Notes: generated by a model from the letters alone, not told the origin. A DNA stretch of 64,000 nucleotides from an uncultured Alphaproteobacteria bacterium (GCA_944392815.1 CALXXY010000001.1:5141-69140); one strand, 5' to 3'. Positions 4,313 through 63,290 are shown, numbered from the stretch's first letter. Made by a program: numbers and translations.

Positions 4313-4470
4313 AATTATTATTCCAGCGTGTGCGCTGCGCGCGGGAATAATAGAGTGGAGAGTGTAGAGTTTAGAGTGTAGATGTTGTCCGCGCATATGC
4401 GCGGGATACCACCCCGGCACTACGTGCCACCCCTCCGTAGAGGGGAACTTTGTTCTGCGACGGGGTGGTT
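4313..4470. repeat. mosaic palindromic intergenic repeat element, copy 1
   Basis: Contains cgcgcgggaataatagagtg, tandem gagtgtagagt 11-mers, the palindrome ccgcgcatatgcgcgg and cccctccgtagaggggaac. All recur at the five other loci listed. Confidence 0.8.
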
Positions 4471-4484
4471 ATTTTTCACTTGGG

Positions 4485-5408
4485 TTATTCGTCATCGTCG
4501 GGGGTGGCGCGCGGGTGGGCGTGTTCATAAATGTTCGTTATTTCCGCCATGTTTACCCTGGTGTACAATTGGGTGGTGGACAAAGACGAATGTCCCAACA
4601 ATTCCTGTAAACTGCGCAAATCTGCCCCACCCGCCAACAGTGCCGTGGCGAATGTATGTCGCAATGCGTGCGGCGTCACGTAATCAGGCAACTGTAAATA
4701 ATGGCGTAATTTTTCAACAACCTTTTCCGCCATGCGTGCCGACATAGGCAGGCCGCGTACACTGCGGAACAATGGGTCGTTTAGTGAATTGCCGAACGGG
4801 CGCAATTGAATATATTTATCAATCGCATCCAATACCGTCGGCAAAGTCGGGACCAGGCGTTCTTTGCCGCCTTTGCCCAATATGCGTAATGTATCTGGGC
4901 GGCCGCGAATGTCGATGTTTTTTAACGATAACGCTTCGGATATACGCAGGCCGCACCCAAACAGCAACATAACCAGTGCCCAATCGCGCGCAGCAATCCA
5001 TGGTTCTGATTCATCAACAACTGCGATGGCGTCGTGCATATCCCGAACGTCGGTGACGTCGATTGCCTTGGACAATTTACGCGGAATTTTTGGTGATGAA
5101 ATTAATCCAATCGCGTCATTTTTTATATCATGTGATTTGGCCAAAAATTTATAAAACCCACGCAACGATGACAGTGCCCGCGCAGTCGATGTATGTGATA
5201 AATTTCGACGTGCCCTGTCGGCCAACCAGGCACGAAAACATACGGTGTCTGCGCGTGCCACATCTGACAGCGAAACGTCCGCGCCAACATAGTTCCCCAG
5301 GAACCGAATAAAGTCGCGAATATCCGTTTCATACGCCGCAGATGTGTGCGCAGAATAGTTTTTAGTTTTTGTTAAATATTCAATAAATTCAATCAGATAT
5401 TCCGACAT
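4485..5408 (-). CDS. tyrosine site-specific recombinase, XerC/XerD family
   Basis: 307 aa with catalytic-region motifs HALRHTFAT and LGHSSLSTTQLYT. Sits in a housekeeping context, not next to a mobile element. Confidence 0.85.
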   Translation of the reverse strand: MSEYLIEFIEYLTKTKNYSAHTSAAYETDIRDFIRFLGNYVGADVSLSDVARADTVCFRAWLADRARRNLSHTSTARALSSLRGFYKFLAKSHDIKNDAIGLISSPKIPRKLSKAIDVTDVRDMHDAIAVVDESEPWIAARDWALVMLLFGCGLRISEALSLKNIDIRGRPDTLRILGKGGKERLVPTLPTVLDAIDKYIQLRPFGNSLNDPLFRSVRGLPMSARMAEKVVEKLRHYLQLPDYVTPHALRHTFATALLAGGADLRSLQELLGHSSLSTTQLYTRVNMAEITNIYEHAHPRATPDDDE

Positions 5409-5410
5409 GT

Positions 5411-6154
5411 TTATTTAATTTCAAAACTTGCAGATACGCTGACGGAAACTTCGGTATCTTTGGCAACTATGCTGCCCGCGGCGGAAAATGCAGCGGCATC
5501 AGCGGCAACCATTTTGGTCGATGCAGTCAGGAAATTTGACGCCCGTGGTTGTATCGTTGATGTGCCACCAACGTTGTATGAAACGCTTAACATTTTGCCC
5601 GCACTGCGACCGTCACCCGCCGCCAAAGCATCGGCACGTTCACGCGCATTTTCGACCGCCGCCGACAGGCAACTTTCCAAAATTGGTTTCATTGTTTCGG
5701 CACTGGTATACATGCGCAGATTTTCTGAATACACATCTTCCTGGCCGGCGAATTGGGTCAAGATTTTTTCAATCGTTTCGATGTTGTCGGCTGATACCTC
5801 GACTGCGATGGTTGTTTCTGTCCCCAGCACAACAGATTTTTCCAATTCACGATTCCATTCGCTGCGTTCGTATGAATTGAATTCGGTCGTCTGCATTTGG
5901 ACGTCCTGGGTTTTCAGGAATTTTGTGATTTCATTGATTTTGTCCGTCGCCATTTTCATGGACGTGGCGGCCGATTTATCCAATGTTGTCACGCGCAGTG
6001 TGATTGCGGTTCTGTCCTTTGGCGCGGTGGTTAAACATTCGCCATTGACCGATATTACGCGTGGCGTGTCCGGTTTGTCCACCCAACCAAACAACAATGC
6101 CAACACGGCGCCAACGCCAATTACACTGCCCGTCCAAATTAATGCGTTTTTCAT
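5411..6154 (-). CDS. SIMPL/DUF541-like periplasmic protein
   Basis: 247 aa with an N-terminal signal anchor. Composition and length resemble the 26 kDa periplasmic immunogenic protein family. The similarity was judged by eye. Confidence 0.5.
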   Translation of the reverse strand: MKNALIWTGSVIGVGAVLALLFGWVDKPDTPRVISVNGECLTTAPKDRTAITLRVTTLDKSAATSMKMATDKINEITKFLKTQDVQMQTTEFNSYERSEWNRELEKSVVLGTETTIAVEVSADNIETIEKILTQFAGQEDVYSENLRMYTSAETMKPILESCLSAAVENARERADALAAGDGRSAGKMLSVSYNVGGTSTIQPRASNFLTASTKMVAADAAAFSAAGSIVAKDTEVSVSVSASFEIK

Positions 6155-6182
6155 GTTTTCTCCTTTACCTTGGTTTTATATT

Positions 6183-7175
6183 TTATCCCAACATAGCGTG
6201 ATGAACGCGTTCATATGTTTTTTCCGCAACACTGCGCGCACGCGCAGCACCATCGGCCAAAATCCTGTCCAATTCAGACGTATTCGCCATTAACCGTTCG
6301 TATTCTGCGCGCGGGGCGGCCAATACCGAATTGATTTTTTCAAACAGTATTTTTTTCGCGTCACCATAACCCATGCCACCACGTTCAAAACGTGCGCGCA
6401 AATCCGCAATTTCTGTTGCTGTGGCAAAATGTTTGTACAATTGGAAAATTGTGGATTCGTCCGGATTTTTTGGTTCGTCTGGTAATTTGCTGTCCGTGAT
6501 TATGCGCATAATTTTCTTTTTCAATTCGGATTCAGGCGCAAATAACGGGATAACATTATCGTACGATTTACTCATTTTCCGGCCGTCCAGCCCGGGGATT
6601 ATGCCTGTGTCTGAACCAATCATGGGTTCGGGCAATTTAAACGTTTCGCCGTACAGGTGATTGAAATAGCCCGCAATGTCACGCGCAAATTCAACGTGCT
6701 GTTTTTGGTCGGCACCAACAGGAACCACATCTGTATCGTACAGCAATATGTCCGCCGCCATTAATATCGGATATGTATACAACCCCATATTCACCCCTGC
6801 ATCAGGATCGGCGCCGGCGGCCTCGTTTTTTTCCAGGGCGGCCTTGTACGAATGGGCACGGTTCATTAACCCCTTTGGCGTGACGTTCATCAACATTGTG
6901 GACAGTTGTGAAACCTGGACTATGTCGGATTGGCGAAACAGCGTCGCATTGTCCAAATTCAGTCCCAACGCCAATAAAATCGCCGCTATTTCATATGTGT
7001 GTTGCTGAATTTGTTTTGGGTCATGAATGATATTCAATGCGTGCAAATCGGCAATAAACACAAACGTTTTATCCGTTTTTGCCATTTCAATCAATGGTTT
7101 TAACGCACCAACATAGTTGCCCAAATGCGGTGTGCCAGTCGGTTTAATTCCAGTCAAAACAGTTTTATCAGACAT
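6183..7175 (-). CDS. trpS: tryptophan--tRNA ligase
   Basis: Class I HIGH region (TGTPHLGNYVG) and KMSKS motif (GRKMSKS). Length is 330 aa. Confidence 0.9.
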   Translation of the reverse strand: MSDKTVLTGIKPTGTPHLGNYVGALKPLIEMAKTDKTFVFIADLHALNIIHDPKQIQQHTYEIAAILLALGLNLDNATLFRQSDIVQVSQLSTMLMNVTPKGLMNRAHSYKAALEKNEAAGADPDAGVNMGLYTYPILMAADILLYDTDVVPVGADQKQHVEFARDIAGYFNHLYGETFKLPEPMIGSDTGIIPGLDGRKMSKSYDNVIPLFAPESELKKKIMRIITDSKLPDEPKNPDESTIFQLYKHFATATEIADLRARFERGGMGYGDAKKILFEKINSVLAAPRAEYERLMANTSELDRILADGAARARSVAEKTYERVHHAMLG

Positions 7176-7224
7176 TATAATTTCCTTTTGCGTTTTATGA
7201 TAACTTGTTTAGATTTCTTTTACC

Positions 7225-7260
7225 AGTAAAAAGAAATCCCACCGGAATCGGTGGGATTGA
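7225..7260 (-). terminator. rho-independent terminator downstream of rpsD
   Basis: Perfect hairpin aatcccaccg-gaat-cggtgggatt, followed on the minus strand by a T-rich run. Confidence 0.55.
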
Positions 7261-7277
7261 ATCTGTTCTGTTTTTTA

Positions 7278-7910
7278 TTAACGAGAATAGAATTCGACGA
7301 CCAGTTCCGGGAACATCTGGACCGGGTACGGAACATCTTCGAATGCCGGGACACGGGTAAATGTCGCGGTGAAGTTCGCACTGTCCACGTTGATATAATC
7401 CGGCCACTGACGTTCGGCGGATTCCAACGCCAACACGACCAACGGCATTTGTTTGGCCTTTTCGCTGACGGTGATGACATCGCCCGGTTTTACCTGATAC
7501 GATGCGATTTTCACGCGTTTGCCGTTAACATAGATGTGGCCGTGGCTGACCAACTGGCGGGCCGAAAATACAGTCGGCGCCAATTTAGCACGATACACAA
7601 CCGCGTCCAAACGGCGTTCCAACAGACCAATCAAATTGTCCGGTGTGTCACCGCGCATGTTGTCGGCCTCGATATAATATTTACGGAATTTCTTTTCGCC
7701 GATGTTGCCATAATAGCCCTTTAACGTCTGTTTTGCGCGCATCTGTTTTGCGTAATCAGACGAATTGCCACCGCGTGATGTTGGACCATGCTGGCCAGGT
7801 TTATATTTACGTTTGTTAAATGGCGATTTCGCCTGGCCCCACAGATTGACACCCAAACTGCGGCCGATTTTCAATTTTCTTGTGCTGCGCTTTGCGCCTG
7901 CTCTTGCCAT
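7278..7910 (-). CDS. rpsD: 30S ribosomal protein S4
   Basis: 210 aa with a strong match to bacterial S4 ([25 protein letters not shown]...). Confidence 0.95.
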
Positions 7911-8029
7911 AATTAATATCCTTTTGTTTTTGGTTTTTTATGGTGCCGGACATTTCACAGAATCCTTATCGTCAATATGACCAAAATACATATTGCTTAT
8001 TCAGTTCTGGTTATCCAGCGGCGTTCAGT

Positions 8030-8884
8030 TTATATTGTTTTTCGCGAAAAATCAAGTAAATTGTGTAATGTTGCAAAGTTGGTCACCCCGCAATCGCGCG
8101 CAAATTTATATGCATCGTCAAAATGACGCCCCAACTGGCATGATTTATGCGCGTCGTCCGACAATAATACCGGAATATTTTTTGCCGCAGCCGCACGCAG
8201 AATACGCGCAGACGGGTACGGTTCATATATTTCCGGTTTGTACAGGCCTGTGTTGATTTCCATGGCAATGCCGGCGGCCGCAATGGCGTCCAGTGCACGA
8301 TTTTCCGCCGTGCACCATTTTTCGTCACGCCCCAGGCCAACCTTTTTCGGTAAATCAATGTGCGCAATCCATGTAAACAGCCCGCTGGCTGCGGCGGCGG
8401 CAACTTTGTCCCAATACATTTGCAGCATTTTATCACGCACGTCCGGCGTTGCGTTTGCCATATCGTGCACATTGCACAGATTATCGTCATAATACACAAA
8501 ATGCGACGAACCTATGACATAATCGGGGTGCAGTTCATCAATCGCGCGTAAAAATCCGTCGCGCCACCAGGCGGTGGGGAAAAAGTCCACCTCCATTCCG
8601 CACAGAATTCGCATGTCTGTATCGGATTGAAATTTGCGCAATTCCGCATAATGCGGGCGAAATTTTTCCATAACGCGGTCAAAAGAATCCAAATAAATCG
8701 CGTCGTACCCGCCACGAACCGCATGCGGATACATGCGGGCGCGCGTAATGTCTGGGTGCACAATGAAATGATTTGATACCCCCAACACGCTGAACCCGGC
8801 GGCACGCGCGGACGCGGCCATTTCGGCAATGGTGTTTGCACCGTCAAATCCGACTGTGTGCGTGTGCAGAGTGAACGTTTGCAT
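8030..8884 (-). CDS. PHP-domain phosphoesterase (histidinol-phosphatase-like)
   Basis: N-terminal HTHT metal-binding motif (MQTFTLHTHTVGFDG) typical of the PHP family. Length is 284 aa. Confidence 0.65.
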   Translation of the reverse strand: MQTFTLHTHTVGFDGANTIAEMAASARAAGFSVLGVSNHFIVHPDITRARMYPHAVRGGYDAIYLDSFDRVMEKFRPHYAELRKFQSDTDMRILCGMEVDFFPTAWWRDGFLRAIDELHPDYVIGSSHFVYYDDNLCNVHDMANATPDVRDKMLQMYWDKVAAAAASGLFTWIAHIDLPKKVGLGRDEKWCTAENRALDAIAAAGIAMEINTGLYKPEIYEPYPSARILRAAAAKNIPVLLSDDAHKSCQLGRHFDDAYKFARDCGVTNFATLHNLLDFSRKTI

Positions 8885-8885
8885 A

Positions 8886-9425
8886 TTAGAATTTTACCTG
8901 GGGGGCAACCTTTTCGGATTCGTCCATTTCAAACATTTGTTCTTGGGTGATGTTAAACATGCGCGCAACCAAATTCGATGGGAACTGTTCAATTTGCGTA
9001 TTCAGCCCCATAACAACATTATTGTAAAACTGGCGCGCCGCCTGGATTTTAGTTTCCGTGTCGGTCAATTCGCGCTGTAATTCCAGAAAATTTTCGTTCG
9101 CCCGCAAAGTCGGATAATTTTCAGAAATTGCGAACAGATTTTTCAATGTTTCGGTTAATTTATTTTCTGCGTCTGCACGATTTGCGCCACCCGCCGCCAT
9201 GGCCGCGTCGCGCGCACGCGTGACGGATTCCAGTGTTTCGCGTTCATGCTTGGCCGCGCCACGCACTGTTTCAATTAAATTCGGAATTAAATCATAACGC
9301 CGTTTTAATTGTGTGTCGATTGTGGACCAGGCCTCGCGTACTTGATTACGGCGCGCGACAAGTCCGTTGTACACGGCGATAAAATACAATAATATTACGG
9401 CAACGATTGCAATTGTGGTCCACAT
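8886..9425 (-). CDS. lemA: LemA family membrane protein
   Basis: Starts MWTTIAIVAVILLYFIAVYNGLV...QVREAWSTIDTQLKRRYDLIPNL, the LemA consensus. The tool ORF extends to 9689, but that extension lies in the repeat element, and the ATG at 9423-9425 fits LemA. Confidence 0.8.
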   Translation of the reverse strand: MWTTIAIVAVILLYFIAVYNGLVARRNQVREAWSTIDTQLKRRYDLIPNLIETVRGAAKHERETLESVTRARDAAMAAGGANRADAENKLTETLKNLFAISENYPTLRANENFLELQRELTDTETKIQAARQFYNNVVMGLNTQIEQFPSNLVARMFNITQEQMFEMDESEKVAPQVKF

Positions 9426-9496
9426 AGTAAAAACTCCCTTTGGTTCGTTATGTGTTTTATTGTATACGCAGGAATTAATAAAAGCAAATCGTTTTC

Positions 9497-9910
9497 TGCG
9501 TGTGCGCTGCGCGCAGAGTGATATTATTGTCACGCACAGCGTGACAATAATAGAGTGGAGAGTGTAGAGTTTAGAGTGTAGATGTTGTCCGCGCATATGC
9601 GCGGGACATACTCTCCCCCTGTCATTCCCGCGTAGGCGGGAATAGGGTCTATAAAATTCGTATCGCGGATTGTGTAATAATAAAAACACAACACGGAATT
9701 ATTCCCCCAATTAAATAACTAATAACAACCACAGCCCTATTCCCGCCTACGCGGGAATGACAGAATGTTTGTTGTGCGGGGCTCTGGGCGCGGGAATGAC
9801 AGAGTATAGAGAGGAAGTGTTTTTTCTTGAACTCTCTAACCACCCCCGCCCGGTGTGGCGGTGGGCATTCGGGTGTGACGTTATTCGTATACCACTGCTG
9901 AGTATGGGGA
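9497..9910. repeat. mosaic palindromic intergenic repeat element, copy 2 (composite, about 410 bp)
   Basis: Shares the gagtgtagagt tandem and ccgcgcatatgcgcgg modules with copy 1, and the tcttgaactctctaaccacc...cggtgtggcggtgggcattc module with copies 3 and 5. Confidence 0.8.
9619..9762. repeat. MITE-like unit: 29-bp perfect inverted repeats (ctgtcattcccgcgtaggcgggaatagggtc / reverse complement) flanking about 86 bp of AT-rich DNA
   Basis: Positions 9619-9647 and 9734-9762 are exact reverse complements of each other. Confidence 0.7.
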
Positions 9911-9911
9911 A

Positions 9912-9945
9912 TAAAAAAATCCCACCAATCGGCGGGATTTTGAAT
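9912..9945 (-). terminator. rho-independent terminator downstream of hup
   Basis: Hairpin atcccacc-aatc-ggcgggat with one mismatch. On the minus strand it is followed by a T-run. Confidence 0.5.
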
Positions 9946-9959
9946 ACAAATCAAACGAT

Positions 9960-10250
9960 TTAGTTCAACGCATCTTTCAACGCTTTGCCTGGTTTGAATT
10001 TCGGCTGAGTGGAAGCCGGAATCTTTATCGCGGCACCTGTCTGAGGATTGCGGCCTGTTGTGGCTTTGCGTTTTGCTGTTGTAAATGTGCCGAAACCAAC
10101 CAAGCGAACTTCGCCTTTCTTTTTCAGAACTTTGGTCACTGTGTTGATGAAAGCGTCCAGGCATGCTGCTGCTGTTGCTTTGGTCACTTCGACTTCGTTT
10201 GCGATTGCTTCAATCAATTGCTGTTTGTTCATTGTGTTTTCTCCTTTCAT
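9960..10250 (-). CDS. hup: DNA-binding protein HU
   Basis: MNKQQLIEAIA...GFGTF...RNPQTGAAIKIP is the HU/IHF fold signature. The true start is probably the internal Met near 10232. Confidence 0.85.
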   Translation of the reverse strand: MKGENTMNKQQLIEAIANEVEVTKATAAACLDAFINTVTKVLKKKGEVRLVGFGTFTTAKRKATTGRNPQTGAAIKIPASTQPKFKPGKALKDALN

Positions 10251-10463
10251 ATAAATTTATACAAGGTGTCCGGCAGTCCCCAAGCAATGCCTGTGGAATC
10301 ATACCCCGCGGGTGTGCGCCATTTTTTTACAGTGCTGTGACGCAAACCTTTGTATTCCACGGACATTGCCTGTGCTGCTTACCCGAATCGTAGAGAATTC
10401 GGGCGTTCAAGTCAAGAGCATATTTAATATTTGATAAATTTTCTGATTGTTGACAAAAACACG

Positions 10464-10940
10464 TTAATTGTGCACCGCATCATAGCGAACCGCACGCGCA
10501 CCGGGCGTGTCAGATTCACACAGCACATATTCGCCGGACAATCCGTCAACCGTCACTGTGCGAAAATGGTTTGGTGTCATTACGAACAACAGTACAATCA
10601 CACTTACCCAGAACGTATATTTGGTTAATTGCCAGGGCTTTTTAAAACTGTCGCGTTTGAATGAATCGCTTAACAAATTCTGGTACAATGACCACCCCCA
10701 ACTGAACGCCAACAGCATAACAACCGCAAACAGCGCAATGATAAAATAACGATGGAACGGCTGCAACGCTGTTGCGAATCCGTCCCAAAAAGTGCTGTCC
10801 GTGGGGCAAATATACAACGCGTACGGCACAGATTCCGCAGACAGTGCAATTGGGGCGTTCGGCGCCAACTGTAATCCGAACGACACAACAATTACTATCG
10901 ATACCAATGCGACTATGGCAAACAGCATTAATGGTTTCAT
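10464..10940 (-). CDS. hypothetical integral membrane protein (158 aa, about 4 TM helices)
   Basis: Hydrophobic segments throughout. No recognisable domain. Confidence 0.45.
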   Translation of the reverse strand: MKPLMLFAIVALVSIVIVVSFGLQLAPNAPIALSAESVPYALYICPTDSTFWDGFATALQPFHRYFIIALFAVVMLLAFSWGWSLYQNLLSDSFKRDSFKKPWQLTKYTFWVSVIVLLFVMTPNHFRTVTVDGLSGEYVLCESDTPGARAVRYDAVHN

Positions 10941-11019
10941 GTGTGATTCCCCAAAAAATCTTTGTATATATTATATCATATTATTGCAATTTGATAAACT
11001 TTTATTTACAATCGTCGTT

Positions 11020-11832
11020 ATGATGCACAAAAAAAGCAATATCGTGGTTGGAATTACAACATTTAACAACGAAATGTTGCGGATTTCTGTGCCTGCGTTG
11101 GGAAAAATTCGTCAGAAATTTACTTTGATTATATACAACGACAATCCTATGACGAATGTTAATCGGCGTTGCATCAGGAAACTGGGGTATTGCGGCGATT
11201 TGATTATTATAAACACAGATGAAAACATCGGGCAATTACGGGCACGCATGGCCATTGTTGACACTGCACGGGATTTGCGCCCGGAATGGATTGTTTTTTG
11301 TGACGACGACGATATTTTGACCGATTTGGAAATTCCACATGTGGCGGACGATAATTTTGCCATTATCCAGGGCGGAATTATATTGCGCCATCGCGTGGGC
11401 GATTTGTTGCGTGCAATGGAAAATCCTGGGGACGTTGATGTTGACGGCGAAAACACAGAACTGGTACGCCCACGGTTGGCTGTGGCGGGCACGCCAATAC
11501 GCGCAAAAACATTGTTTGGATTGGCGAAAATTATGCCGGACATGTATGATGCCATCGCGCGCATTGATGAAAAATTTGAATTTTATCCGCCTGTGGACAC
11601 AATGATGTGGAATTTTGTAAACATATATGCACGCCATGTAAACCCGAACGCAGTGCCAATTTATATGGATAAAATAAACTATATCAAAAATGAAATCGAT
11701 ACAGCACGCATGAAATATGGGCGTTTGGCGCGTCCTGTGCGAAATGCAGATGAACATTATCGGCGGGCAATCGAAAAATATGACGCAGTGTTGCATGACG
11801 CGATTGGCGTGGCGGCCGCCCTGCGGGGCTGA
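11020..11832 (+). CDS. GT-A fold glycosyltransferase-like protein
   Basis: Start reassigned to ATG at 11020, because the tool ORF from 10792 overlaps the divergent gene. IVVGITTFNNE, LIIYNDN and DDDD (DXD) resemble GT2-type motifs. Confidence 0.45.
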   Translation: MMHKKSNIVVGITTFNNEMLRISVPALGKIRQKFTLIIYNDNPMTNVNRRCIRKLGYCGDLIIINTDENIGQLRARMAIVDTARDLRPEWIVFCDDDDILTDLEIPHVADDNFAIIQGGIILRHRVGDLLRAMENPGDVDVDGENTELVRPRLAVAGTPIRAKTLFGLAKIMPDMYDAIARIDEKFEFYPPVDTMMWNFVNIYARHVNPNAVPIYMDKINYIKNEIDTARMKYGRLARPVRNADEHYRRAIEKYDAVLHDAIGVAAALRG

Positions 11833-11931
11833 TACGATTTATTTATAATTATTTTCATAAAACATAAATATCTGATTGAAACCACGGTGGAATATGTATA
11901 AAATTGCACCGACAATAAACAGGGAACCAAA

Positions 11932-13989
11932 ATGAAATACAATGACATTCGTAAAACTTTTTTAGATTACTTTGAATCGCACGGGCATAAAATTGTGCCG
12001 TCTGCGTCGCTGATACCAAACGATCCGACGCTGTTATTCACGGTCGCCGGCATGGTCCCATGGAAGGGTATTTTACAGGGAACCGAACCTGCATTTGCAC
12101 CACGCGTTGCCGACGTTCAGAAATGTATTCGCGCGGGCGGCAAACACAACGATTTGGACGAGGTTGGATTTGACGGCCGGCATCATACTTTTTTTGAAAT
12201 GCTGGGCAATTGGTCGTTTGGCGATTATTTCAAAGCCGGTGCTATTGAAATGTCGTGGGATTTGTTGACCAACGTGTTAAAACTGGATCCGGCACGTTTG
12301 CGCGTGACAACGCATGTGACCGATGACGAATCCACAGAAATATGGCGTCGCGTTGCCGGCAAAGAGGCCATTCGCATGGGCGACAAAGACAACTGGTGGT
12401 CGGCGGGCGACACCGGCCCATGTGGTCCATGCACTGAAATATTTTATGATTTCGGTGATACATTTGAAAACGAAGACGACAGATGGGTTGAAATCTGGAA
12501 CGACGTGTTTATGCAATATGACCGCGACGCGAACGGCAATTTGACGCCGTTGCCAAAACAAAATGTTGATACAGGTGGCGGTCTGGAACGCTGGGCGGCA
12601 TTGTTGCAAAACAAAGTCGATAATTTCGATACTGATTTGTTTGTAAATTTAATCAATGCGACCCAGGATATTGTCGGCGTGAAAAAAACACCTGAAAACA
12701 CGCCGTCGTTTAAAATCATCGCAGACCACCTGCGTGCGGTTGGCTTTGCAATCGCGGACGGGGTTATCCCCAGCAATACCGACCGTGGGTATGTAATTCG
12801 TCGCATATTGCGCCGCGCAATGCGTCATGGGCAAATGCTGGGGCACCGCGGGGCTTTGTTGTCCAAATTATATCCTGCGTTGATTACAGAAATGGGCGAA
12901 GCGTATCCTGAATTGGCACGCGAAGAAAAGCGCGTTGTTGAAATTATCGAAAACGAAGAAAACGCATTCGCTGATATGCTGCAAAACGGCATGAAATTGT
13001 TGGATATCGAAATTCCCAAGGTGCAAAACGGCATTTTGCCCGGCGAAATCGCGTTCAAATTATTTGATACATACGGATTCCCGCTGGATTTAACCCAAAT
13101 GATTTTGCGCGAAAAAAATATAGATGTCGATGTGGCTGGATTCGAACGCGCCATGGCCGAACAAAAAGAACGCAGCCGCGCCAATACCAAAGGCACGCGG
13201 ACACTGTGGGAATCGCAAACTGAATTGCCCGACACCGATGACCATTATAAATACGCGCCGGACGCAAATTTAACATCAACCGTATTGGCAATTTTGCGCG
13301 ATGGCGAATTTGTACAAAGTGCAAAATCTGGGGACGAAGTCGAAGTGGCTTTGGACAAAACCAATTTCTATGGCACCCAGGGCGGCCAGGTTGGCGACGC
13401 CGGCGAATTGGTGGCGAACGGCACAACAATCATGACCGTGACCGAGGCCGCACGCGTTGATAACGTCGTGATTCACCGCGGGACTTTGGTGGGTGATTTG
13501 GCTGTTGGTGATACAGTGCAAACGAAAATTAATGCGGCCACGCGTCAACAAACTGCACGTGCACACACGGCAACCCACCTGTTGCAGGCGGCGTTGCGTC
13601 ATGTGCTGAACGAAGATGTCGAACAGCGCGGTTCCAAAGTGTCGCCTGATTCTGTGCGATTTGACTTTTCGTTTGGGCGCGCAATGACGGCCGACGAAAA
13701 ACAGGCGGTCGAAGATTTAGTTAACAAATGGATTGCGGACGATATGCCTGTCGCACACGAAGAAATGTCCATTGACGACGCAAAAAAACGTGGTGCAATG
13801 GCTTTGTTCGGCGAAAAATATGGCGACGTGGTAAAGGTTATTTCGGCCGGCGATGTATCGTGCGAATTGTGCGGTGGCACACACGTGTATCACACTGGCG
13901 AAATAATTCACGCGCGTGTAAACAAAGAAAAATCCATCAGCAGCGGCATTCGCCGTATAACAATGTCCGTTGGAACATTGGCAGAATAA
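11932..13989 (+). CDS. alaS: alanine--tRNA ligase lacking the C-terminal C-Ala domain
   Basis: Class II catalytic core, tRNA-recognition and editing domains are present and end at ...GIRRITMSVGTLAE. The protein is 685 aa, whereas typical AlaRS is about 870 aa. The stop codon is followed 3 nt later by a repeat element. Confidence 0.9.
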   Translation: MKYNDIRKTFLDYFESHGHKIVPSASLIPNDPTLLFTVAGMVPWKGILQGTEPAFAPRVADVQKCIRAGGKHNDLDEVGFDGRHHTFFEMLGNWSFGDYFKAGAIEMSWDLLTNVLKLDPARLRVTTHVTDDESTEIWRRVAGKEAIRMGDKDNWWSAGDTGPCGPCTEIFYDFGDTFENEDDRWVEIWNDVFMQYDRDANGNLTPLPKQNVDTGGGLERWAALLQNKVDNFDTDLFVNLINATQDIVGVKKTPENTPSFKIIADHLRAVGFAIADGVIPSNTDRGYVIRRILRRAMRHGQMLGHRGALLSKLYPALITEMGEAYPELAREEKRVVEIIENEENAFADMLQNGMKLLDIEIPKVQNGILPGEIAFKLFDTYGFPLDLTQMILREKNIDVDVAGFERAMAEQKERSRANTKGTRTLWESQTELPDTDDHYKYAPDANLTSTVLAILRDGEFVQSAKSGDEVEVALDKTNFYGTQGGQVGDAGELVANGTTIMTVTEAARVDNVVIHRGTLVGDLAVGDTVQTKINAATRQQTARAHTATHLLQAALRHVLNEDVEQRGSKVSPDSVRFDFSFGRAMTADEKQAVEDLVNKWIADDMPVAHEEMSIDDAKKRGAMALFGEKYGDVVKVISAGDVSCELCGGTHVYHTGEIIHARVNKEKSISSGIRRITMSVGTLAE

Positions 13990-14339
13990 AAAATTCCCGC
14001 GCGTATGCGCGGGAATAATAGAGTGTAGAGTGAAGAGTTTAGAGTGTAGATAATGTCTGCGGGCGGTACGCCCGCAGTGCTTTTTTTATTTACTGGATCG
14101 CCACGCTTTGCTCGCGATGACAAGGGGGACGAAGTGGATAATTACGCACTCTCTAACCACCCCGCCCCGTTGGGGCACCCCTCCAATGGAGGGGAACTTA
14201 TTCTGCGACGGGACGAAGGCCAAGTTCCCCTCTGCGGAGGGGTGCCGGCTATGCCGGCGGGGTGGTCATTGTACCCCCCGTTGTGCAAAGCATGCCCCCC
14301 GCCAGAGGCGGTGGGCATTACTTGCACCCTACACTCTAA
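13990..14339. repeat. mosaic palindromic intergenic repeat element, copy 3 (about 350 bp)
   Basis: Shares modules with copies 4 and 5: ttcccgcgcg-N-cgcgcgggaat, gagtgtagagt tandem, gtctgcgggc-N-gcccgcagtgc, tttactggatcgccacgctttgctcgcgatgacaaggggg. It also carries ccctccaatggaggggaac...ttcccctctgcggaggggtgccggctatgccggcggggtgg. Confidence 0.85.
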
Positions 14340-14340
14340 T

Positions 14341-14370
14341 AAAAAACGGGGCGGTGCCCCGTTTTTTTTA
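14341..14370. terminator. rho-independent terminator (aaaaaacggggcggtgccccgtttttttt) shared by convergent alaS and rlpA
   Basis: GC-rich hairpin flanked by an A-run and a T-run. Confidence 0.7.
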
Positions 14371-19500: not shown

Positions 19501-19883
19501 AATCCATTGCCAATAAAGAACGCGTCTTTATTTGTAGTGAATCAGTGGCAGCGCGGCTTTTGTTTCCCCCGCGATAATCAATAATAAATTAAAACAACGG
19601 GGAATTTTTTGGGACATATCCCAAATCTCTCTGACCCCAGTAATGTTAGTATATTTTCAATTAAATGCAAGAGATAATATTTTTAAACCTTGCATTATAC
19701 GTGTCGGAATAGTAATATACTTTATGTCAATGGGGGTTCCATTGATGGGGTGTGAAGACCTCTGCCTTAGCGTCGAACGGGAAAAATGGCGCTCCATTAT
19801 ACAGGATGTTGATTAAGTCCAAACGCGCATAAAACATACAAGAATTACTAGTGAGTTTTAACTTGATTGATATGTTATTATAG

Positions 19884-20987
19884 TTATATTAAGTATTGTA
19901 ATAATTTTTCTAACTGTGTATCATTTAATAGAATTATCTTGCACGCATTTGCAGCTTGTCTAGCAGATTTAGTAAAACCCGCATTAGATACAACAACACC
20001 ATAGTCACAATTATAAAAATCTCGTCCTGCATTTGCCTCTTGAACCGCTTTGTTACCTACAGGTTTGGAATATTTTTTACATTGAATAGCAAAAGATACG
20101 CCATTCTTTTTTGCTATCACGTCTGCACCCTGGTCCCCACTGGCTTTTGTAGTGCGCGCATTGAATCCCAGTGACTTTAATTTAATTGTTATGCTTTTTT
20201 CGTAATCTAATGGTGTAATATTTTTTTGCTTTAAATTTATATCAGGCATTTCCCACTTATTGACATACAAACTAAAAACAAGCTCTTTTACAACATTACA
20301 GGCATTTAAATACCTATATTCTTCCAAACGATTGTTTTCTAAAATGATATTTTTCTTTGCACAACTCTGGGTACTGATGAAAATAAGCTCACCTCTAATA
20401 TCATCTGTTTTATCTAGCATATTAAAATAAACATCTTCCATAATGCCAAAAGAACGATTATCTATTTTTATATCACTGTTGTCATCCGTCGCCACAAATA
20501 TGCAAAAATTGAAAAAGTCCGCTTCAAATACAGGATACAAATATATTTCCAAGGAATGGTCAGGGATATTTGAAAATAGTTTTTCGTAACTATTTTGTAA
20601 TGCTTCATTATAATAAGGTGTTGCGTAAATAGGCATCTCTCTAGTCAATACAACATTCTGAGCAAAATTATACAATTCGTTTATATAATTTTCATAATGA
20701 ATATATCCATAATCGTCTTCTGTTACTAACTGCAAAAATTTTGCATGCAGCGTGTTTTCATGTTGTTGAATTATATCATAAATTTGATTTACATATTCCT
20801 GTCTGTATGTGTTTACAATTTTTGTATGTTTTTTTAGTTTTTCTATCAGCATCCGTTTTTCATTTTGAATATTTTTTTGATTTTTAACATTTCTTGCATC
20901 GTACTCTTCTAGCTTCATTAACAAAAAAGCCACCAACAATATAGCGATAGCACTGACGACAACAATTATTCCAATACTGTTTAACAT
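19884..20987 (-). CDS. membrane-anchored protein with C-terminal Mrr_cat-type restriction endonuclease domain
   Basis: 367 aa. N-terminal TM helix (IGIIVVVSAIAILLVAFLLM), a coiled-coil segment and an unknown middle domain. The C-terminus GDQGADVIAKKNGVSFAIQCKKYSKPVGNKAVQEANAGRDFYNCDYGVVVSNAGFTKSA matches the Mrr N-terminal catalytic PD-(D/E)xK domain (D-x-D...QCK). The local DNA is strongly AT-rich compared with its neighbours. Confidence 0.7.
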   Translation of the reverse strand: MLNSIGIIVVVSAIAILLVAFLLMKLEEYDARNVKNQKNIQNEKRMLIEKLKKHTKIVNTYRQEYVNQIYDIIQQHENTLHAKFLQLVTEDDYGYIHYENYINELYNFAQNVVLTREMPIYATPYYNEALQNSYEKLFSNIPDHSLEIYLYPVFEADFFNFCIFVATDDNSDIKIDNRSFGIMEDVYFNMLDKTDDIRGELIFISTQSCAKKNIILENNRLEEYRYLNACNVVKELVFSLYVNKWEMPDINLKQKNITPLDYEKSITIKLKSLGFNARTTKASGDQGADVIAKKNGVSFAIQCKKYSKPVGNKAVQEANAGRDFYNCDYGVVVSNAGFTKSARQAANACKIILLNDTQLEKLLQYLI

Positions 20988-21146
20988 GTATTAATCCTTT
21001 TATATATTCTGTATTGTTTTAAAAAATCTGTAACTTTGATATCGCGTCCCTTTAACTCAATGCATACATATTTTAAAAACGCATACCGCATCATGCAGGA
21101 AACCAACTGGAGACAAAGCATAATGATAACACCAAAAATTTAAAGT

Positions 21147-21719
21147 TCATAACGTTCCCCTTTTATTGAATAAATCCGTTACGCCTGCAGCATCACCAAT
21201 CTGTTGTCCGTTCTTAAATCGCACAAAATGCCCCATGTTTTTCCCAAGTGCAATAAAAATGCCTTGTTTATAGTTGAAATACGTTCGTAAATTTTCAGAT
21301 GGCGCAGTTTTGTTTGTAAATATCTTTAATTTATTTTCATCGTGCGTCCAGTCATCATCGTTATGCCAATAGCCTTTCAGTTCTATAACCAGCATATTGT
21401 TTTCGTGTGTCCCGCGTGTATGCACTATTATATCCGGAAATACACGCCCTTTTTTCTCATCAGATGCCGCATAAGCATTATTACAGCCCAGATGTTTAAT
21501 TAGTTCTTCTCCAGAATTATCTGTGGCTTTGCCGTATTCACAGTCAACAGACAGGCAATCGTTATCATATCCATGTATATCCAATAGACGCTGTAAATAT
21601 CCTGCAATTCTAGATGCACACGTTCTTTCCAAACCGCCAATTTCAACAAGCTTTTTGTCGCGCTTATAGAATATTGCCACCGCGGTCTGTAATAGTTCAA
21701 ATATTGCTTCCGTGTTCAT
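21147..21719 (-). CDS. hypothetical protein, possible PD-(D/E)xK-fold nuclease-like protein
   Basis: 190 aa, encoded upstream of and co-directional with the Mrr_cat gene. FPDIIVH...VIELKGYW resembles the hhh-D ... hhh-E-x-K core. The assignment is tentative. Confidence 0.45.
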   Translation of the reverse strand: MNTEAIFELLQTAVAIFYKRDKKLVEIGGLERTCASRIAGYLQRLLDIHGYDNDCLSVDCEYGKATDNSGEELIKHLGCNNAYAASDEKKGRVFPDIIVHTRGTHENNMLVIELKGYWHNDDDWTHDENKLKIFTNKTAPSENLRTYFNYKQGIFIALGKNMGHFVRFKNGQQIGDAAGVTDLFNKRGTL

Positions 21720-22032
21720 TCTACTCGCCCCTTTTTAATTCAAACAAAAAACCACCTGACAAAGCGGGTGGTTGGAGGTTAAGAACTATAATCTGGTATA
21801 GCGAGCTTATTCAATATATTCACTGCCCTCCAACCATGATGATTGGAGGTGTTTTTATGTCCCCACGGACACCAGATTCAGAGGTTCTTACGCCCCAACA
21901 CGGCAACCGCCATGTCGCTTTATACTTTATCACGGACAAAAATCCCGTGCAAGCAGTTTATAATGCATACTATTAAACAATGAGGAATTTATATTCTGGT
22001 GCGGCCGGCGGGTTCCCTCGCGCGACACATAA

Positions 22033-22068
22033 TAAAAACAACGCCACAGTTTTGTGGCGTTGTTTTTT
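22033..22068 (-). terminator. rho-independent terminator downstream of tRNA-Arg
   Basis: Hairpin aacaacgccaca-gttt-tgtggcgttgtt with flanking A-runs and T-runs. Confidence 0.6.
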
Positions 22069-22072
22069 ATTC

Positions 22073-22149
22073 TGGCGCGCCCAGAAGGATTCGAACCCTC
22101 AACCTTCTGATCCGTAGTCAGATGCTCTATCCAATTGAGCCATGGGCGC
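22073..22149 (-). tRNA. tRNA-Arg (anticodon ACG)
   Basis: Reverse complement reads GCGCCCA-TGGCTCAATTGGATAGAGCA-TCTGACTACGGATCAGA...GGTTCGAATCC...TGGGCGC-G-CCA. The cloverleaf has a 7-bp acceptor stem, the anticodon loop is CUACGGA and the CCA end is encoded. Confidence 0.9.
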
Positions 22150-38381: not shown

Positions 38382-38545
38382 ACAGAGTGGAGAGTTATAT
38401 CATTCCCGCGCGTGCGCGCGGGAATAATAGAGTGTAGAGTGGAGAGTTTAGAGTGTAGATAATGTCTGTGGGCAAATGCCCGCAGTGCTTTTTATTTACT
38501 GGATCGCCACGCTTTGCTCGCGATAACAAGGGGGAGTAAGTGGTT
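38382..38545. repeat. mosaic palindromic intergenic repeat element, copy 4
   Basis: cattcccgcgcgtgcgcgcgggaataatagagtgtagagtggagagtttagagtgtagataatgtctgtgggcaaatgcccgcagtgctttttatttactggatcgccacgctttgctcgcgataacaaggggg is nearly identical to copies 3 and 5. Confidence 0.85.
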
Positions 38546-38558
38546 AATTGTTGTTTTG

Positions 38559-47349: not shown

Positions 47350-47380
47350 TAAAAACGGGGCGTCTGCCCCGTTTTTATTA
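47350..47380 (+). terminator. rho-independent terminator downstream of groEL
   Basis: aaaaacggggcgtctgccccgttttt hairpin directly after the stop codon. Confidence 0.7.
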
Positions 47381-47800
47381 GAGTGTAGAGTGGAGAGTAT
47401 AGAGTGTAGATAATGTCTGCGGGCGAATGCCCGCAGTGCTTTTTTATTTACTGGATCGCCACGCTTTGCTCGCGATGACAATGGAGAGTAAGTGCATATT
47501 CTTGAACTCTCTCACCACCCCGCCCTGCGGGCACCCCTCCAATGGAGGGGAACTGATTCCGCGACGGGACGAAAGCCAAGTTCCCCTCTGCGGAGGGGTG
47601 CCGGCTATGCCGGCGGGGTGGTCATTGTGCCCCACCCCCCGTCGTGCTCTGCACGACACCCCCCGCCCAGAACCACCCACGCAAACTATGTTTGCGCGGG
47701 GCCCGGTGTGGCGGTGGGCATTCTGATATTTCACCATTCGTATGCCACTGCCCCAACATGGGGCGGGGGGTATTCGGGTGCAGGATTTTAATTTGCGGGG
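47379..47800. repeat. mosaic palindromic intergenic repeat element, copy 5 (about 420 bp, the longest)
   Basis: Contains the gagtgtagagt tandem, gtctgcgggc-N-gcccgcagtgc, tttactggatcgccacgctttgctcgcgatgacaa and cttgaactctctcaccaccccgccctgcgggcacccctccaatggaggggaac...ttcccctctgcggaggggtgccggctatgccggcggggtgg. A cggtgtggcggtgggcattc module is shared with copies 2 and 3. Confidence 0.85.
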
Positions 47801-48024
47801 GTGACGATTGTACCGCCGCCGGGCAGAACTGGTGTGATTTCGCCGCCGGGAACGGGGTCAAACGTACATGGTGCGGCTAGTGTTGTGGCGCACGCAACGC
47901 CGCACAACATGGGAATAACCGGGTGCTATGTCCAGGCCCAGGATACTTTTTATGACCCCAGCGGGACGTGGGTTTATGATTCTGATTGCCCATACTATCC
48001 AGAATAGTAATCCGAAACAGATAT

Positions 48025-52687: not shown

Positions 52688-52688
52688 G

Positions 52689-61819: not shown

Positions 61820-61891
61820 TAAATTCCCCATTTTGCTGTTGAAACGTGACGCGGCCTGTGTTATGCTGGACGCCGTAACAAAGGGGATTTT

Positions 61892-63133
61892 ATGTACATA
61901 CTTGCATTGAACTGTGGTTCTTCGTCACTGAAATATCAGGTTTTTGATGCTGATACTAAACGCGCCGTTGTGGGCGGGAATGTGGAAAAAATCGGATTGC
62001 CGGATTCTTTTATCACACAAAAATACCCGGACGGCACCAAACAGCGCAAAGATACCGAAATGAAAAATCATGACGAGGCATTAAATGTCGTTCTGTTTAT
62101 GCTGCGCGACGCGTCCATCGACATGAATGAAATCGGCGGTGTTGGGCACCGCGTGGTTATGGGGGGCGATAAATTTGCGTCGTCTGTGGAAATTACTGAT
62201 GACGTGATTAAAACTATTGATGAATTGTCGCCGTTGGCGCCATTGCACAACCCGTCGGCACTGATGGGAATTGTGACAGCAAAACAGTTGTTGCCCAACG
62301 CAAAACAGGTTGCTGTGTTTGATACCGCGTTTCACCAGACAATGCCTGATTATGCGTATCGCTATGCCGTGCCACACGCGTGGTACACTGAATTGGGCGT
62401 GCGCAGATACGGGTTCCACGGAACATCGCACCTGTACGTATCCAAACGCGCGGCCAAACTGTTGGGACGGCCGGCGTCTGAGTGTAATTTGGTGACGCTG
62501 CACATCGGTTCGGGCGCGTCGGCCACAGCAATTAAAAACGGTATTTCGGTTGATACTTCGCTGGGCATGACACCGTTGTCGGGGCTGACCATGGGAACGC
62601 GGCCGGGCGATGTTGATCCAGGTGTGATTTTGTACGTGATGGAACGGTTGCACCTGACGCCGGAACAAATGCAAAAACATTTGAACAAAGATTCTGGATT
62701 AATGGGACTGACGGAATGTTTCGTTGATCGCCGTGATGTGGAATCCAACCGCGACACTAATGACAAATGCCGTTTGGCGATTGATATGGAATCGCACAAC
62801 GTGAAAAAATACATTGGTGCATATATGGCCGAGTTGGGTCACACAGACGCGTTGGTGTTTACCGCCGGCGTGGGCGAAAACGATGATTACCTGCGTGAAA
62901 AATTCTGTACAGGATTGGAAGAATTGGGAATCAAACTGGACCGCGAAAAAAATGCCGCCGCGTTGGCGCGCAAGGGTATTTCTGAAATGGAAATTTCCAC
63001 CCCAGACAGCCCGGTAAAGGTATTCATGATTGCCACCAACGAAGAGTTGGTTATCGTCGAAGATACATTGGCCATCATGAACGGCACATATAATCCAAAC
63101 CATTTGGAAATGGATTATTCATTCGCGAAATAA
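61892..63133 (+). CDS. ackA: acetate kinase
   Basis: MYILALNCGSSSLKYQVF N-terminus, HLGSGAS and TAGVGEN motifs of the ASKHA-fold acetate kinase. Confidence 0.9.
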   Translation: MYILALNCGSSSLKYQVFDADTKRAVVGGNVEKIGLPDSFITQKYPDGTKQRKDTEMKNHDEALNVVLFMLRDASIDMNEIGGVGHRVVMGGDKFASSVEITDDVIKTIDELSPLAPLHNPSALMGIVTAKQLLPNAKQVAVFDTAFHQTMPDYAYRYAVPHAWYTELGVRRYGFHGTSHLYVSKRAAKLLGRPASECNLVTLHIGSGASATAIKNGISVDTSLGMTPLSGLTMGTRPGDVDPGVILYVMERLHLTPEQMQKHLNKDSGLMGLTECFVDRRDVESNRDTNDKCRLAIDMESHNVKKYIGAYMAELGHTDALVFTAGVGENDDYLREKFCTGLEELGIKLDREKNAAALARKGISEMEISTPDSPVKVFMIATNEELVIVEDTLAIMNGTYNPNHLEMDYSFAK

Positions 63134-63134
63134 C

Positions 63135-63161
63135 AAACGGGGCATTCGCCCCGTTTGTTAT
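63135..63161 (+). terminator. terminator-like hairpin downstream of ackA
   Basis: caaacggggcattcgccccgtttg hairpin, but the T-run is weak. Confidence 0.45.
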
Positions 63162-63290
63162 TAGAGTGAAGAGTGTAGAGTTTAGAGTGTAGATAATGTC
63201 CGCGCATATGCGCGGGATTTTATTACCGTTGCGGAATAAAGTTCCCCTCTGCGGAGGGGTGGGCAAAGCCCGGGGTGGTTTATTCCATTG
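63158..63290. repeat. mosaic palindromic intergenic repeat element, copy 6
   Basis: agagtgaagagtgtagagtttagagtgtagataatgtccgcgcatatgcgcgg plus the gttcccctctgcggaggggtg module. Confidence 0.8.

Follow-up and report, generated by a model that had tools for sequence, protein, structure and literature searches.

Lineage-specific mosaic arrays of hairpin-forming repeats in the intergenic DNA of an uncultured alphaproteobacterium

We analysed 64,000 nt of DNA (hereafter the window) from an uncultured Alphaproteobacteria bacterium (GCA_944392815.1, CALXXY010000001.1:5141-69140), in which an earlier note, made from the sequence alone, had described a family of palindromic repeat elements at six sites. 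These elements, here called E1 to E6, are a dispersed intergenic mosaic of shared hairpin-forming modules. The modules turn over as whole units between near-identical strains, and the family is confined to one sublineage. We consider it probable that the elements are lineage-specific selfish arrays of hairpin repeats, of the class formed by REPs (repetitive extragenic palindromes), BIMEs (bacterial interspersed mosaic elements) and NIMEs (neisserial intergenic mosaic elements), and that they are turned over at the DNA level.

An 18-nt core, TAGAGTGTAGATRWTGTC, has exactly six matches in the window, all on the + strand (4372, 9572, 14040, 38449, 47400 and 63183), and none in 100 dinucleotide-preserving shuffles, confirming that the six sites are real. 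The elements are 120-420 bp long. We placed them relative to genes using Pfam together with the gene calls of matching public assemblies, the matching contigs of this marine organism having been assembled many times from the ENA sets BRZ_* and ONAT22-1, with coverage of up to about 68x in the BRZ_* and ONAT22 sets. The adjacency of tilS and ftsH is in keeping with an alphaproteobacterial source. All six copies are intergenic, as the earlier note had it, and none lies within coding sequence. Repeat finding, self-BLAST and pattern searches recovered the sharing of modules, which follow a fixed order with some parts optional, and self-BLAST gave a sequence divergence between copies of 6-10%. All six copies contain a 41-nt heptad block, (A/T)(A/T)TAGAGTG-NAGAGTG-NAGAGTN-TAGAGTG-TAGAT(AA/GT)TGTC. 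This is followed by one of two hairpin types, each found in three copies: CCGCGC-ATAT-GCGCGG in E1, E2 and E6, or CTG(C/T)GGGC-loop-GCCCGCAG-TGCTTTTT, which ends in a T-run, in E3, E4 and E5. Longer copies continue with TTTACTGGATCGCCACGCTTTGCTCGCGATGACAA (a module present in three copies), then AAGTG-N-CTCTCTAACC, the nested palindrome ACCACCCCG...CGGGGTGGT, more hairpins and finally GGCGGTGGGCATT; the nested palindrome occurs in two long copies, in one short copy and as one half. The tandem unit had been read as an 11-mer, gagtgtagagt, but Tandem Repeats Finder identifies it as the heptamer TAGAGTG, with period 7 and 4.6 copies. The proposed ttcccgcgcg...cgcgcgggaat module does exist, in two copies and one degenerate one, but it is not family-wide. 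The elements do create spurious open reading frames (ORFs), as had been suspected, including those starting MSSRAKRGDPVNKK, and one of these, of 167 aa, is called as a gene in several public assemblies. A protein search with six concatenated frames of E3 returned nothing that scored, its candidate list probably having been flooded. We conclude that the elements form a dispersed intergenic mosaic of shared hairpin-forming modules.

Every one of the six elements is 3' of a gene; no element separates a divergent pair, the flanking genes being only co-directional or convergent (Table 1). Relative to the preceding gene, three elements are in sense orientation (E3, E5 and E6) and three are antisense (E1, E2 and E4). 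The list of genes that the elements had been said to follow is therefore correct for alaS, groEL and ackA but not for the chimeric-protein (histone-like), lemA and GT9 genes: these are on the - strand with the element at their 5' side, and the elements instead lie 3' of the xerC-like, HU and M23-peptidase genes, to which they are antisense.

Comparison of strains revealed extensive allelic turnover. Among strains with identical AlaS, the alaS-rlpA spacer has four lengths (219, 379, 442 and 454 bp), and alignment shows that the alleles differ by whole modules that are present, absent or replaced. The differences comprise an extra TATTGTCACGC palindrome, a 34-nt hairpin module in slot h of the nested core (described below), a different inner spacer, an additional module common with E5, and two alternative right ends. 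Three insertions distinguish E2 from its L093 allele, among them a 41-nt unit that puts an exact dRS3 palindrome, ATTCCCGCTGGCGCGGGAAT, within the heptad block, an arrangement also found in E4. At the locus running from rph (RNase PH) to two tRNA genes, strain contigs L082, L083 and L084 carry three versions, in minus orientation and without heptads. Segments are also inverted in place: the 69-bp centre of the core in the L085 copy matches E3 at 68 of 69 positions when flipped, versus 49 of 70 when read directly, with the flanking modules unflipped, and in L082 an inversion is confined to the inner spacer. Four of the five differences in E5 of strain L028 match the state of other copies, a hint of gene conversion, and small palindromes are found nested inside other modules. 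We conclude that modules are added, lost, swapped and flipped as whole units between near-identical strains.

One further contig, L086, contains a hybrid element (11225-11600) that joins window position 4473 to 14259 and, at face value, deletes xerC, trpS, rpsD, lemA, hupB and alaS; a second similar contig exists. The join, with its loss of essential genes, could stem from a translocation in the strain or from a mis-assembly induced by the repeats. Judging by allele L096, more than 150 bp can be common to E1 and E3, so a chimeric assembly is at least as likely as an E1 x E3 recombinant, and the join is not used as evidence here.

The DNA of the species covered by our comparisons amounts to ~105 kb, taken from short-read metagenome assemblies, and the repeats reach a density of at least nine loci in ~85 kb. 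Copies are spread across at least 85 kb of the species and one lies in a separate metagenome-assembled genome (MAG), which bears out the claim of a dispersed modular family of intergenic palindromes rather than a local duplication. In contrast, three syntenic relatives (L076, L079 and L088; AlaS ~90% identical) keep the gene order with short spacers, ordinary terminators and zero modules. In a closer relative, L090 (~90% DNA identity), the alaS stop codon is directly followed by the terminator, constituting an empty E3 site, in an A-tract; the lemA-hupB gap of L090 holds an insert unlike that of the window, and a single decayed fragment follows its RNase J gene, where the window has none. The separate MAG, L017, is a GTDB representative and has one composite copy after rmuC, an unrelated gene. 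A contig classed as viral in IMG/VR (L091, IMGVR_UViG_3300042271_000466) carries a single core arm, CCCACCCCGCCCTTCGGGCACCCCTCCAATGGAGGGGAAC, between two genes (11532-11590). Scans of contigs from genomes and metagenomes with the 18-nt core gave single chance matches only, besides L017 and a heptad array in L070. We conclude that the family is lineage-specific, being restricted to one sublineage and absent from syntenic relatives.

The L070 array (Ga0099364_10151850, 1-330) is on an unrelated metagenome contig with a GC content of 0.40 and has about 17 tandem TAGAGTG heptads followed by TAGATAATGTCTG; after another 120 bp the heptads recur as an inverted array, which gives the look of a foldback element.

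The modules resemble several known repeat families. REPs tagged with CGTC or TGTC are mostly alphaproteobacterial, with stems of 8-9 bp that begin with A-T pairs, 4-5-nt loops and a CCA tail, and their superfamily includes Neisseria dRS3 and the Rickettsia palindromic elements RPE-4 and RPE-6 (Di Nocera et al. 2013, PMC3733652). In the elements described here, the unpaired tag by which such REPs are recognised (CGTC, TGTC or CCTC, at one end of the palindrome) is TGTC and stands directly before CCGCGC.., CTGCGGGC.., ATTCCCGC.. and, on the - strand, ATCGCGAGC..; the tagged hairpins include TGTC-CCGCGCATATGCGCGG and TGTC-ATTCCCGCGTAGGCGGGAAT. The NTS-like unit has the stem and loop of a CGTC-REP except for its tail, AGG, and the module GTCATCGCGAGCAAAGCGTGGCGATCCAG (read on the - strand; GTCATCGCGAGC..GCGATCCAG) fits the description apart from an imperfect stem. 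Further points of likeness are the AT-first stems (ATTCCCGC, ATCGC), the loops of 4-5 nt and the CCA(G) tail after the TTGTCATCGCGAGC..GGCGATCCAG module. REPs are also reported from between co-directional and convergent genes (PMC3733652), as here, and no dedicated transposase is known for them. However, the two commonest hairpins of the elements (CCGCGC.. and CTGCGGGC..) combine the TGTC tag with 6-8-bp stems made up of G and C alone, the tail of the NTS-like units is AGG rather than CCA, and the repeats lie inside long composites, not as free head-to-head dimers.

The exact dRS3 consensus, ATTCCC-N8-GGGAAT (ATTCCCNNNNNNNNGGGAAT, a 20-bp inverted repeat), has two matches in the window (9624-9643 and 9739-9758) versus 0.01 expected. 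Both are in E2, in inverted orientation around a 95-bp A+T-rich spacer, and TGTC precedes each to give GTCATTCCCGCGTAGGCGGGAAT; two more dRS3-like palindromes, with N12 spacing, occur one each in E3 and E4. In NIMEs, dRS3 inverted repeats flank RS elements of ~50-150 bp, usually in multi-unit arrays (Bentley et al. 2007, PMC1797815). The elements resemble NIMEs in being intergenic arrays that mix a GC-rich palindrome with other repeat families, in the E2 arrangement of the exact dRS3 consensus around its spacer, in the strain-to-strain differences in repeat number and length of syntenic arrays, and in having other repeats nested within them. They differ in that there is one dRS3-RS-dRS3 unit only, that of E2, rather than arrays of several such units, with no dRS3 in E1, E5 and E6. 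Moreover, the host belongs to the Alphaproteobacteria, units of the dRS3 type form a minor part (two strict matches and two N12 variants in 64 kb), the defining parts (the TAGAGTG heptad block and the nested palindromic core) are not in NIMEs, and no association with surface-antigen genes is evident.

The core of the Neisseria NTS repeat, GTCATTCCCGCG-NNN-GCGGGAAT, is present in the nested unit of E2, and the L083 copy just past the window reads GTCATTCCCGCGCAGGCGGGAAT, with 23 nt identical to the NTS core. The hairpin core GTCATTCCCGCG(C/T)AGGCGGGAAT is shared with the NTS/SsnA system (PMC11893778), and the inverted hairpin pair around a short segment recalls its NTS-gene-NTS layout. However, the pair here encloses no gene, the published pattern of Ssn-related motifs (SRM) is unmatched in the window, the 3' flank is AGGG versus CYRG, and an ssn gene (GIY-YIG, cd10448), which such motifs often flank, was not found among the called genes or Pfam matches in the ~105 kb. 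The best NTS-like copies have 3-4 mismatches to the 28-nt NTS, for which at most one is allowed, and these include the C after the palindrome.

BIMEs of E. coli, which are clusters of REPs or palindromic units (PU) associated with RAYT, and the RIMEs of Rhizobium are mosaics of palindromic units and fixed connecting motifs, extragenic at the 3' ends of genes, with compensatory changes in their stems. The mosaic of palindromic units, the extragenic 3'-end position and the compensatory stem changes are all shared by the elements described here, but there is no sequence similarity and no RAYT gene was seen in the ~105 kb. GTAG recurs in every heptad, that is every 7 nt, but 8 nt away from the next hairpin, unlike the REP tag, which is at the hairpin foot. 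Rickettsia palindromic elements, one of two comparators proposed earlier, are in-frame insertions inside protein-coding genes, whereas all copies here are intergenic. Correia elements, the other, resemble ours, as do other miniature inverted-repeat transposable elements (MITEs), in being short, non-coding and repeated, with terminal inverted repeats in some copies and TA at the ends. They are nonetheless a poor comparator: length (120-420 bp) and content are variable here versus a conserved element of ~156 bp, or a form of it with an internal deletion, bounded by its own inverted repeat (PMC1797815), the ends are unrelated to the Correia repeat, one end is missing in most copies, there is no IHF site or Correia sequence, and the inverted ends consist of tandem heptads, as in foldback elements. 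The CGTC-tagged REPs, which include RPE-4 and RPE-6, and the NIME/dRS3 arrays fit better. Judged by sequence, several modules are TGTC-tagged REP-type hairpins, and the parts include true dRS3/NTS-type palindromes. We also considered and rejected attC sites of integrons, remnants of group II introns and retron RNAs: there were no core motifs or Rfam matches, and the flanks are housekeeping genes on both strands.

The pairing of the hairpins is preserved. The nested core is made up of two arms, ACCACCCCG-h-CACCCCTCC-loop-GGAGGGGAAC, in which slot h, next to ACCACCCCG, is occupied by about ten unrelated stems, including GCAC/GTGC, GCGC/GCGC, CCCC/GGGG, CCGGC/GCCGG, GGC/GCC and TCC/GGA. We aligned 14 distinct arms from the window, strain contigs and L017. 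In this alignment 93.8% of cells are paired, versus 63.8% in shuffles (0 of 500 reach 93.8%), and pairing falls to 33-54% in a control in which the partner was slid by 1-3 columns. Two-sided changes occur in four of the five pairs (16 cells); compensatory changes, for which a check had been proposed, are present, and the variable hairpin stays paired through all 16. In the other hairpins, stems are kept and loops are free (ATAT, ATGT, ATC and ATAC; GGTAC, AAAT, GAAT, GATAC and GAAC). The unpaired cells of the variable hairpin are T-C and A-C, with no wobble pairs. Given that arms from the two strands behave in the same way and that the mismatches are not of the wobble type, the pairing pattern is no pointer to RNA. 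It would result equally from selection acting on the hairpins as DNA and from correction of one arm by the other within a hairpin.

If the elements acted as host RNA, they would be structured 3' untranslated regions (3' UTRs), extra terminators, mRNA-stabilising hairpins or small RNAs (sRNAs) from the + strand. The folds are indeed very stable relative to shuffles (z -11.3 for the + strand of E3 and -8.6 for E5), E3, E5 and E6 are downstream of + strand genes, the top terminator-like site in both scanned regions is CTGCGGGC-loop-GCCCGCAG followed by TGCTTTTTT, and the single T.G pair in E4 would be tolerable only on the + strand. However, the - strand of E3 folds equally well (z -10.9), because the elements are palindromic, and E1, E2 and E4 are antisense to the preceding gene. 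The terminator-like hairpin of E4 has no + strand gene upstream to terminate, only the GT9 promoter directed away from it, while groEL and ackA have their own terminators ahead of E5 and E6. An Rfam covariance-model search of the window matched no RNA family to any element at the gathering score, which only two tRNAs reached; at E<=5 it gave only weak matches overlapping E3, E5 and E6, far below that score. In addition, a plain terminator suffices in the relatives, module content varies freely from strain to strain, and the mismatched cells are of the wrong kind. We therefore regard the host-RNA explanation as improbable, and the 3' UTR or sRNA role suggested earlier as unsupported by the sequence data. 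A role as DNA sites serving the host, either as recognition hairpins for an Ssn-type nuclease that modulate recombination of incoming DNA, as with NTS/SsnA in Neisseria, or as heptad arrays bound by a nucleoid protein, is likewise distinctly unlikely. The 23-nt identity to the NTS core in the L083 copy (GTCATTCCCGCGCAGGCGGGAAT), the fact that all six cores point the same way and the report of NTS-like repeats from other Alphaproteobacteria (Chenal et al. 2025, PMC11893778) argue for such a role. Set against this, the strict SRM pattern has zero matches, the critical C after the palindrome is missing, five of the six elements have no NTS-like unit, and no GIY-YIG gene was seen in the ~105 kb. 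Since the relatives are entirely without repeats, a conserved host function is not required.

The ends of the elements bear on a different alternative, a single MITE family. The left end of E3, ATAGAGTGTAG, pairs with its right end, CTACACTCTAAT, in the minimum-free-energy fold; in the L085 copy the terminal inverted array of heptads, GGGCATTATCTACACTCTTCACTCTACACCCTAAT, is longer, and the right end of E3 recurs in the L086 and L093 alleles. Heptad ends that are not beside a palindrome all (5/5) abut the T-tract of a CGGGGC-N4-GCCCCG terminator, CCCCGTTTTT(T)ATTAGRGTGTAG, with the junction consensus CCCCGTTTTT(T) followed directly by ATTAG(A/G)GTGTAG; such ends may reflect target preference or survivorship. 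TA precedes GAGTG at every heptad end, but as a target duplication it is inseparable from the repeat itself. These features would suit a ~330-bp unit with TAGAGTG-heptad terminal inverted repeats of 12-35 bp, moved by a classical transposase encoded elsewhere, which we hold to be rather unlikely; the corresponding mode of movement, cut-and-paste into TA/T-tracts beside terminators, with short copies as internal-deletion or one-ended derivatives, we rate no higher. The terminal inverted right end is absent in five of the six window copies, the L096 and L098 alleles swap it for unrelated sequence, and modules occur independently, some without heptads (L083 12360-13010, L083 19394-19460 and L084 18293-18511); a single cut-and-paste MITE therefore leaves the picture partly unexplained. 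An autonomous partner was not found in the ~105 kb. The heptad-ended composite might instead be an active non-autonomous mobile element, hairpin-guided and single-stranded, that homes to terminator T-tracts and is moved by a so-far unrecognised enzyme of the lineage, with the core as a flip-flop segment and the uniform strand resulting from insertion into one replication strand. We consider this unlikely too. Finally, local segmental duplication or assembly artefact, with no dispersed family, is hardly credible. All of the data are short-read metagenome assemblies, which are prone to collapsing or mis-joining repeats, and the L086 join may be a chimera; but independent samples yield identical assemblies of all six elements, the genes beside them are housekeeping genes of unrelated kinds, the copies have diverged by 6-10%, and copies are found in another MAG and in a viral contig.

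Under the explanation that we favour, selfish arrays of hairpin repeats, each locus would be an array assembled from a small kit of short hairpin-forming DNA repeats. The kit would comprise the TAGAGTG heptad block, the TGTC-tagged REP-like hairpins (including the dRS3/NTS-type ATTCCC...GGGAAT), the connecting motifs and the nested palindromic core, ACCACCCCG-h-CACCCCTCC...GGAGGGGTG-h-CGGGGTGGT. Arrays would sit where extra DNA is tolerated, after a stop codon or terminator and before the next gene, and their units would be selfish or neutral DNA that is spread and homogenised at the DNA level. One likely route is insertion directed by hairpins and carried out by a trans-acting, single-strand-specific enzyme whose gene lies elsewhere in the genome, for which RAYT (for GTAG REPs) and the Ssn GIY-YIG nucleases (for dRS3/NTS-type hairpins) are precedents; equally likely contributors are exchange between copies, by homologous recombination or gene conversion, and inversion at their inverted repeats. 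Effects on the host, namely an extra terminator hairpin, substrates for recombination and repeats that break assemblies, would be by-products.

Several observations weigh against this account. The heptad core has the same orientation in all six elements (two-sided p about 0.03), which the model leaves unexplained. No mobilising gene, whether Y1 transposase, GIY-YIG or insertion sequence (IS) transposase, is among the called genes in the ~105 kb of the species. The SRM pattern, HGTCWYN(0-2)YYVSBRHN(0-5)WNVSBRGN(0-2)RNCYNB, has no match on either strand of the window. The cytosine following the palindrome is critical for SsnA binding (PMC11893778), and the NTS-like units here are without it. The inverted heptad ends of three long copies (E3, the L085 copy and the L086/L093 alleles) fit a conventional MITE too. 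Lastly, a clean pair of filled and empty sites with a target duplication was not found among the strains compared, so insertion, as distinct from recombination, is a putative route only.

Two sets of candidates for a linked enzyme were rejected. The xerC-like gene near E1 is conserved in repeat-free relatives, so it is a housekeeping gene, and the small or unannotated ORFs turned out to encode HU, CspA-like, SecG, secreted Cys-rich and RmuC proteins.

The repeats are thus a new sequence family of a known kind, and nothing indicates a new mechanism or principle. For annotation, they matter in that the arrays yield false ORFs, and in an abundant lineage of marine alphaproteobacteria they interrupt metagenome contigs or may cause them to be wrongly joined; at least eight contigs in public assemblies terminate inside E2, E3, E5 or a copy upstream of the window. 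They also offer a compact natural series for the gain, loss, swap and inversion of modules, leading from repeat-free relatives, by way of one whose site is empty and which keeps a decayed fragment, to strains with four alleles of a single locus. Dispersed dRS3/NTS-type hairpins are hereby extended to an uncultured marine lineage, which bears on the question of what spreads CGTC-type REPs. Should the hairpin-guided mobile element prove true, it would be a tractable natural system for the spread of these REPs, which have no known transposase.

Table 1 Repeat elements of the window, with their parts and neighbouring genes (window coordinates; strand of genes in brackets)
Feature	Position	Strand	Parts	Neighbours
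E1 (from repeat, pattern and self-BLAST comparisons)	4320-4469	+	degenerate dRS3-like palindrome 4320-4348; heptad block 4349-4389; CCGCGCATATGCGCGG hairpin 4389-4404; short nested palindrome ACCACCCCG..CGGGGTGGT 4408-4469	histone-like gene start (3730-4278, -); xerC-like gene stop (4485-5408, -)
E2	9490-9909	+	hairpin 9494-9518; palindrome TATTGTCACGC/GCGTGACAATA 9525-9548; heptad block 9549-9589; CCGCGC hairpin 9589-9604; nested dRS3-RS-dRS3 unit 9617-9765; half-NTS 9788-9801; AAGTG..CTCTCTAACC 9815-9841; truncated core and GGCGGTGGGCATT 9838-9869; tail to 9909	lemA start (8886-9425, -); HU (hupB) terminator and stop (9916-9960, -)
Mini-element nested in E2	9617-9765	.	perfect 29-bp inverted repeats 9619-9647 and 9735-9763, each containing TGTC and ATTCCCGC-GTAG-GCGGGAAT; 95-bp A+T-rich spacer between them	
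E3, full-length	13993-14340	+	palindrome ATTCCCGCGCG-TAT-GCGCGGGAAT 13993-14016; heptad block 14017-14057; terminator-like hairpin and T-run 14057-14087; TGTC-REP-like module (- strand reading) 14089-14123; AAGTG..CTCTCTAACC 14132-14158; nested palindromic core 14156-14266; hairpin and GGCGGTGGGCATT 14267-14319; inverted heptad end CTACACTCTAAT 14329-14340	3' of alaS (+; stop 13989); ahead of terminator shared with rlpA-like gene (-) (14346-14363)
E4	38382-38549	+	heptad-like AGAGTGGAGAGTT 38384-38396; palindrome ATTCCCGCGCG-TG-CGCGCGGGAAT 38402-38425; heptad block 38426-38466; terminator-like hairpin with one T.G pair 38466-38493; TGTC-REP-like module 38495-38529; partial next module to 38549	GT9/DUF4254 gene promoter (38341-38313, -); M23-peptidase stop (38559, -)
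E5, longest copy	47377-47785	+	heptad block 47377-47417; terminator-like hairpin 47417-47445; TGTC-REP-like module 47447-47481; AAGTG..CTCTCTCACC 47490-47516; nested core 47514-47622; hairpin modules up to GGCGGTGGGCATT 47710-47722; E2-like tail to ~47785	downstream of groEL (+); abuts T-run of groEL terminator (47355-47373)
E6	63160-63279	+	heptad block 63160-63200; CCGCGCATATGCGCGG 63200-63215; ATTTTATTACCGTTGCGG spacer (also in L017 and L083); half core GTTCCCCTCTGCGGAGGGGTG-GGCAAAGCC-CGGGGTGGT 63241-63279	downstream of ackA (+); abuts ackA terminator (63137-63155)
Terminator-like hairpin			CTGCGGGC..GCAGTGCTTTTTT	

At least one further composite, the seventh, lies just beyond the end of the window (L083 12360-13010). 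The sites right after E5 (window 47790-47850) and right after this composite (L083 13020-13080) have ~60 bp in common, which on the - strand reads as the C-terminus of a small ORF ending ..GGEITPVLPGGGTIVTPAN and a stop codon; no assembly calls this ORF as a gene.

Directly to the left of E4, before the GT9/DUF4254 gene, is a perfect sigma-70 consensus, TTGACA-17-TATAAT (window 38313-38341, -). We compared window 13990-38560 with the corresponding region of the relative L079 (12058-16199), in which alaS is directly followed by genes for a methyltransferase, an M23 peptidase, RNase J and an MBL protein, then ftsH, tilS and onward to groESL. The window has an extra 24.5 kb bounded by E3 and E4, and the methyltransferase-M23 pair is inverted; E3 and E4 therefore stand at synteny breakpoints relative to L079.

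Other loci of the region vary between strains. A low-GC segment (0.345; window 19689-22034) beside a tRNA-Arg gene (22073-22149) contains a gene for an Mrr-type restriction endonuclease (19884-20987, -) and is missing from strain contig L086, which makes it a strain-variable island. Between E6 and the next composite (window 63280-64000; L083 11389-13479; same region of L082 and L084) are genes for small secreted Cys-rich proteins (108 and 145 aa, with signal peptides and no Pfam family), whose number varies between strains that are 98.6% identical. A cassette of two genes (~147 aa and 92 aa, neither in a Pfam family), with a long leader, is found after the RNase PH gene in the window strain (L083 18400-19393) and between lemA and hupB in a relative (L090 1760-2703), and is missing in L084; it looks mobile. 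The only Rfam match to the cassette leader was a weak one to sRNA-Xcc1 (30.9 bits versus a gathering score of 53). Finally, the AlaS encoded at window 11932-13989 has 685 aa and is without the usual C-terminal domain. About 120 relatives (88-95% identity) are nearly all of the same length, indicating that the short AlaS is a trait of a very abundant lineage.

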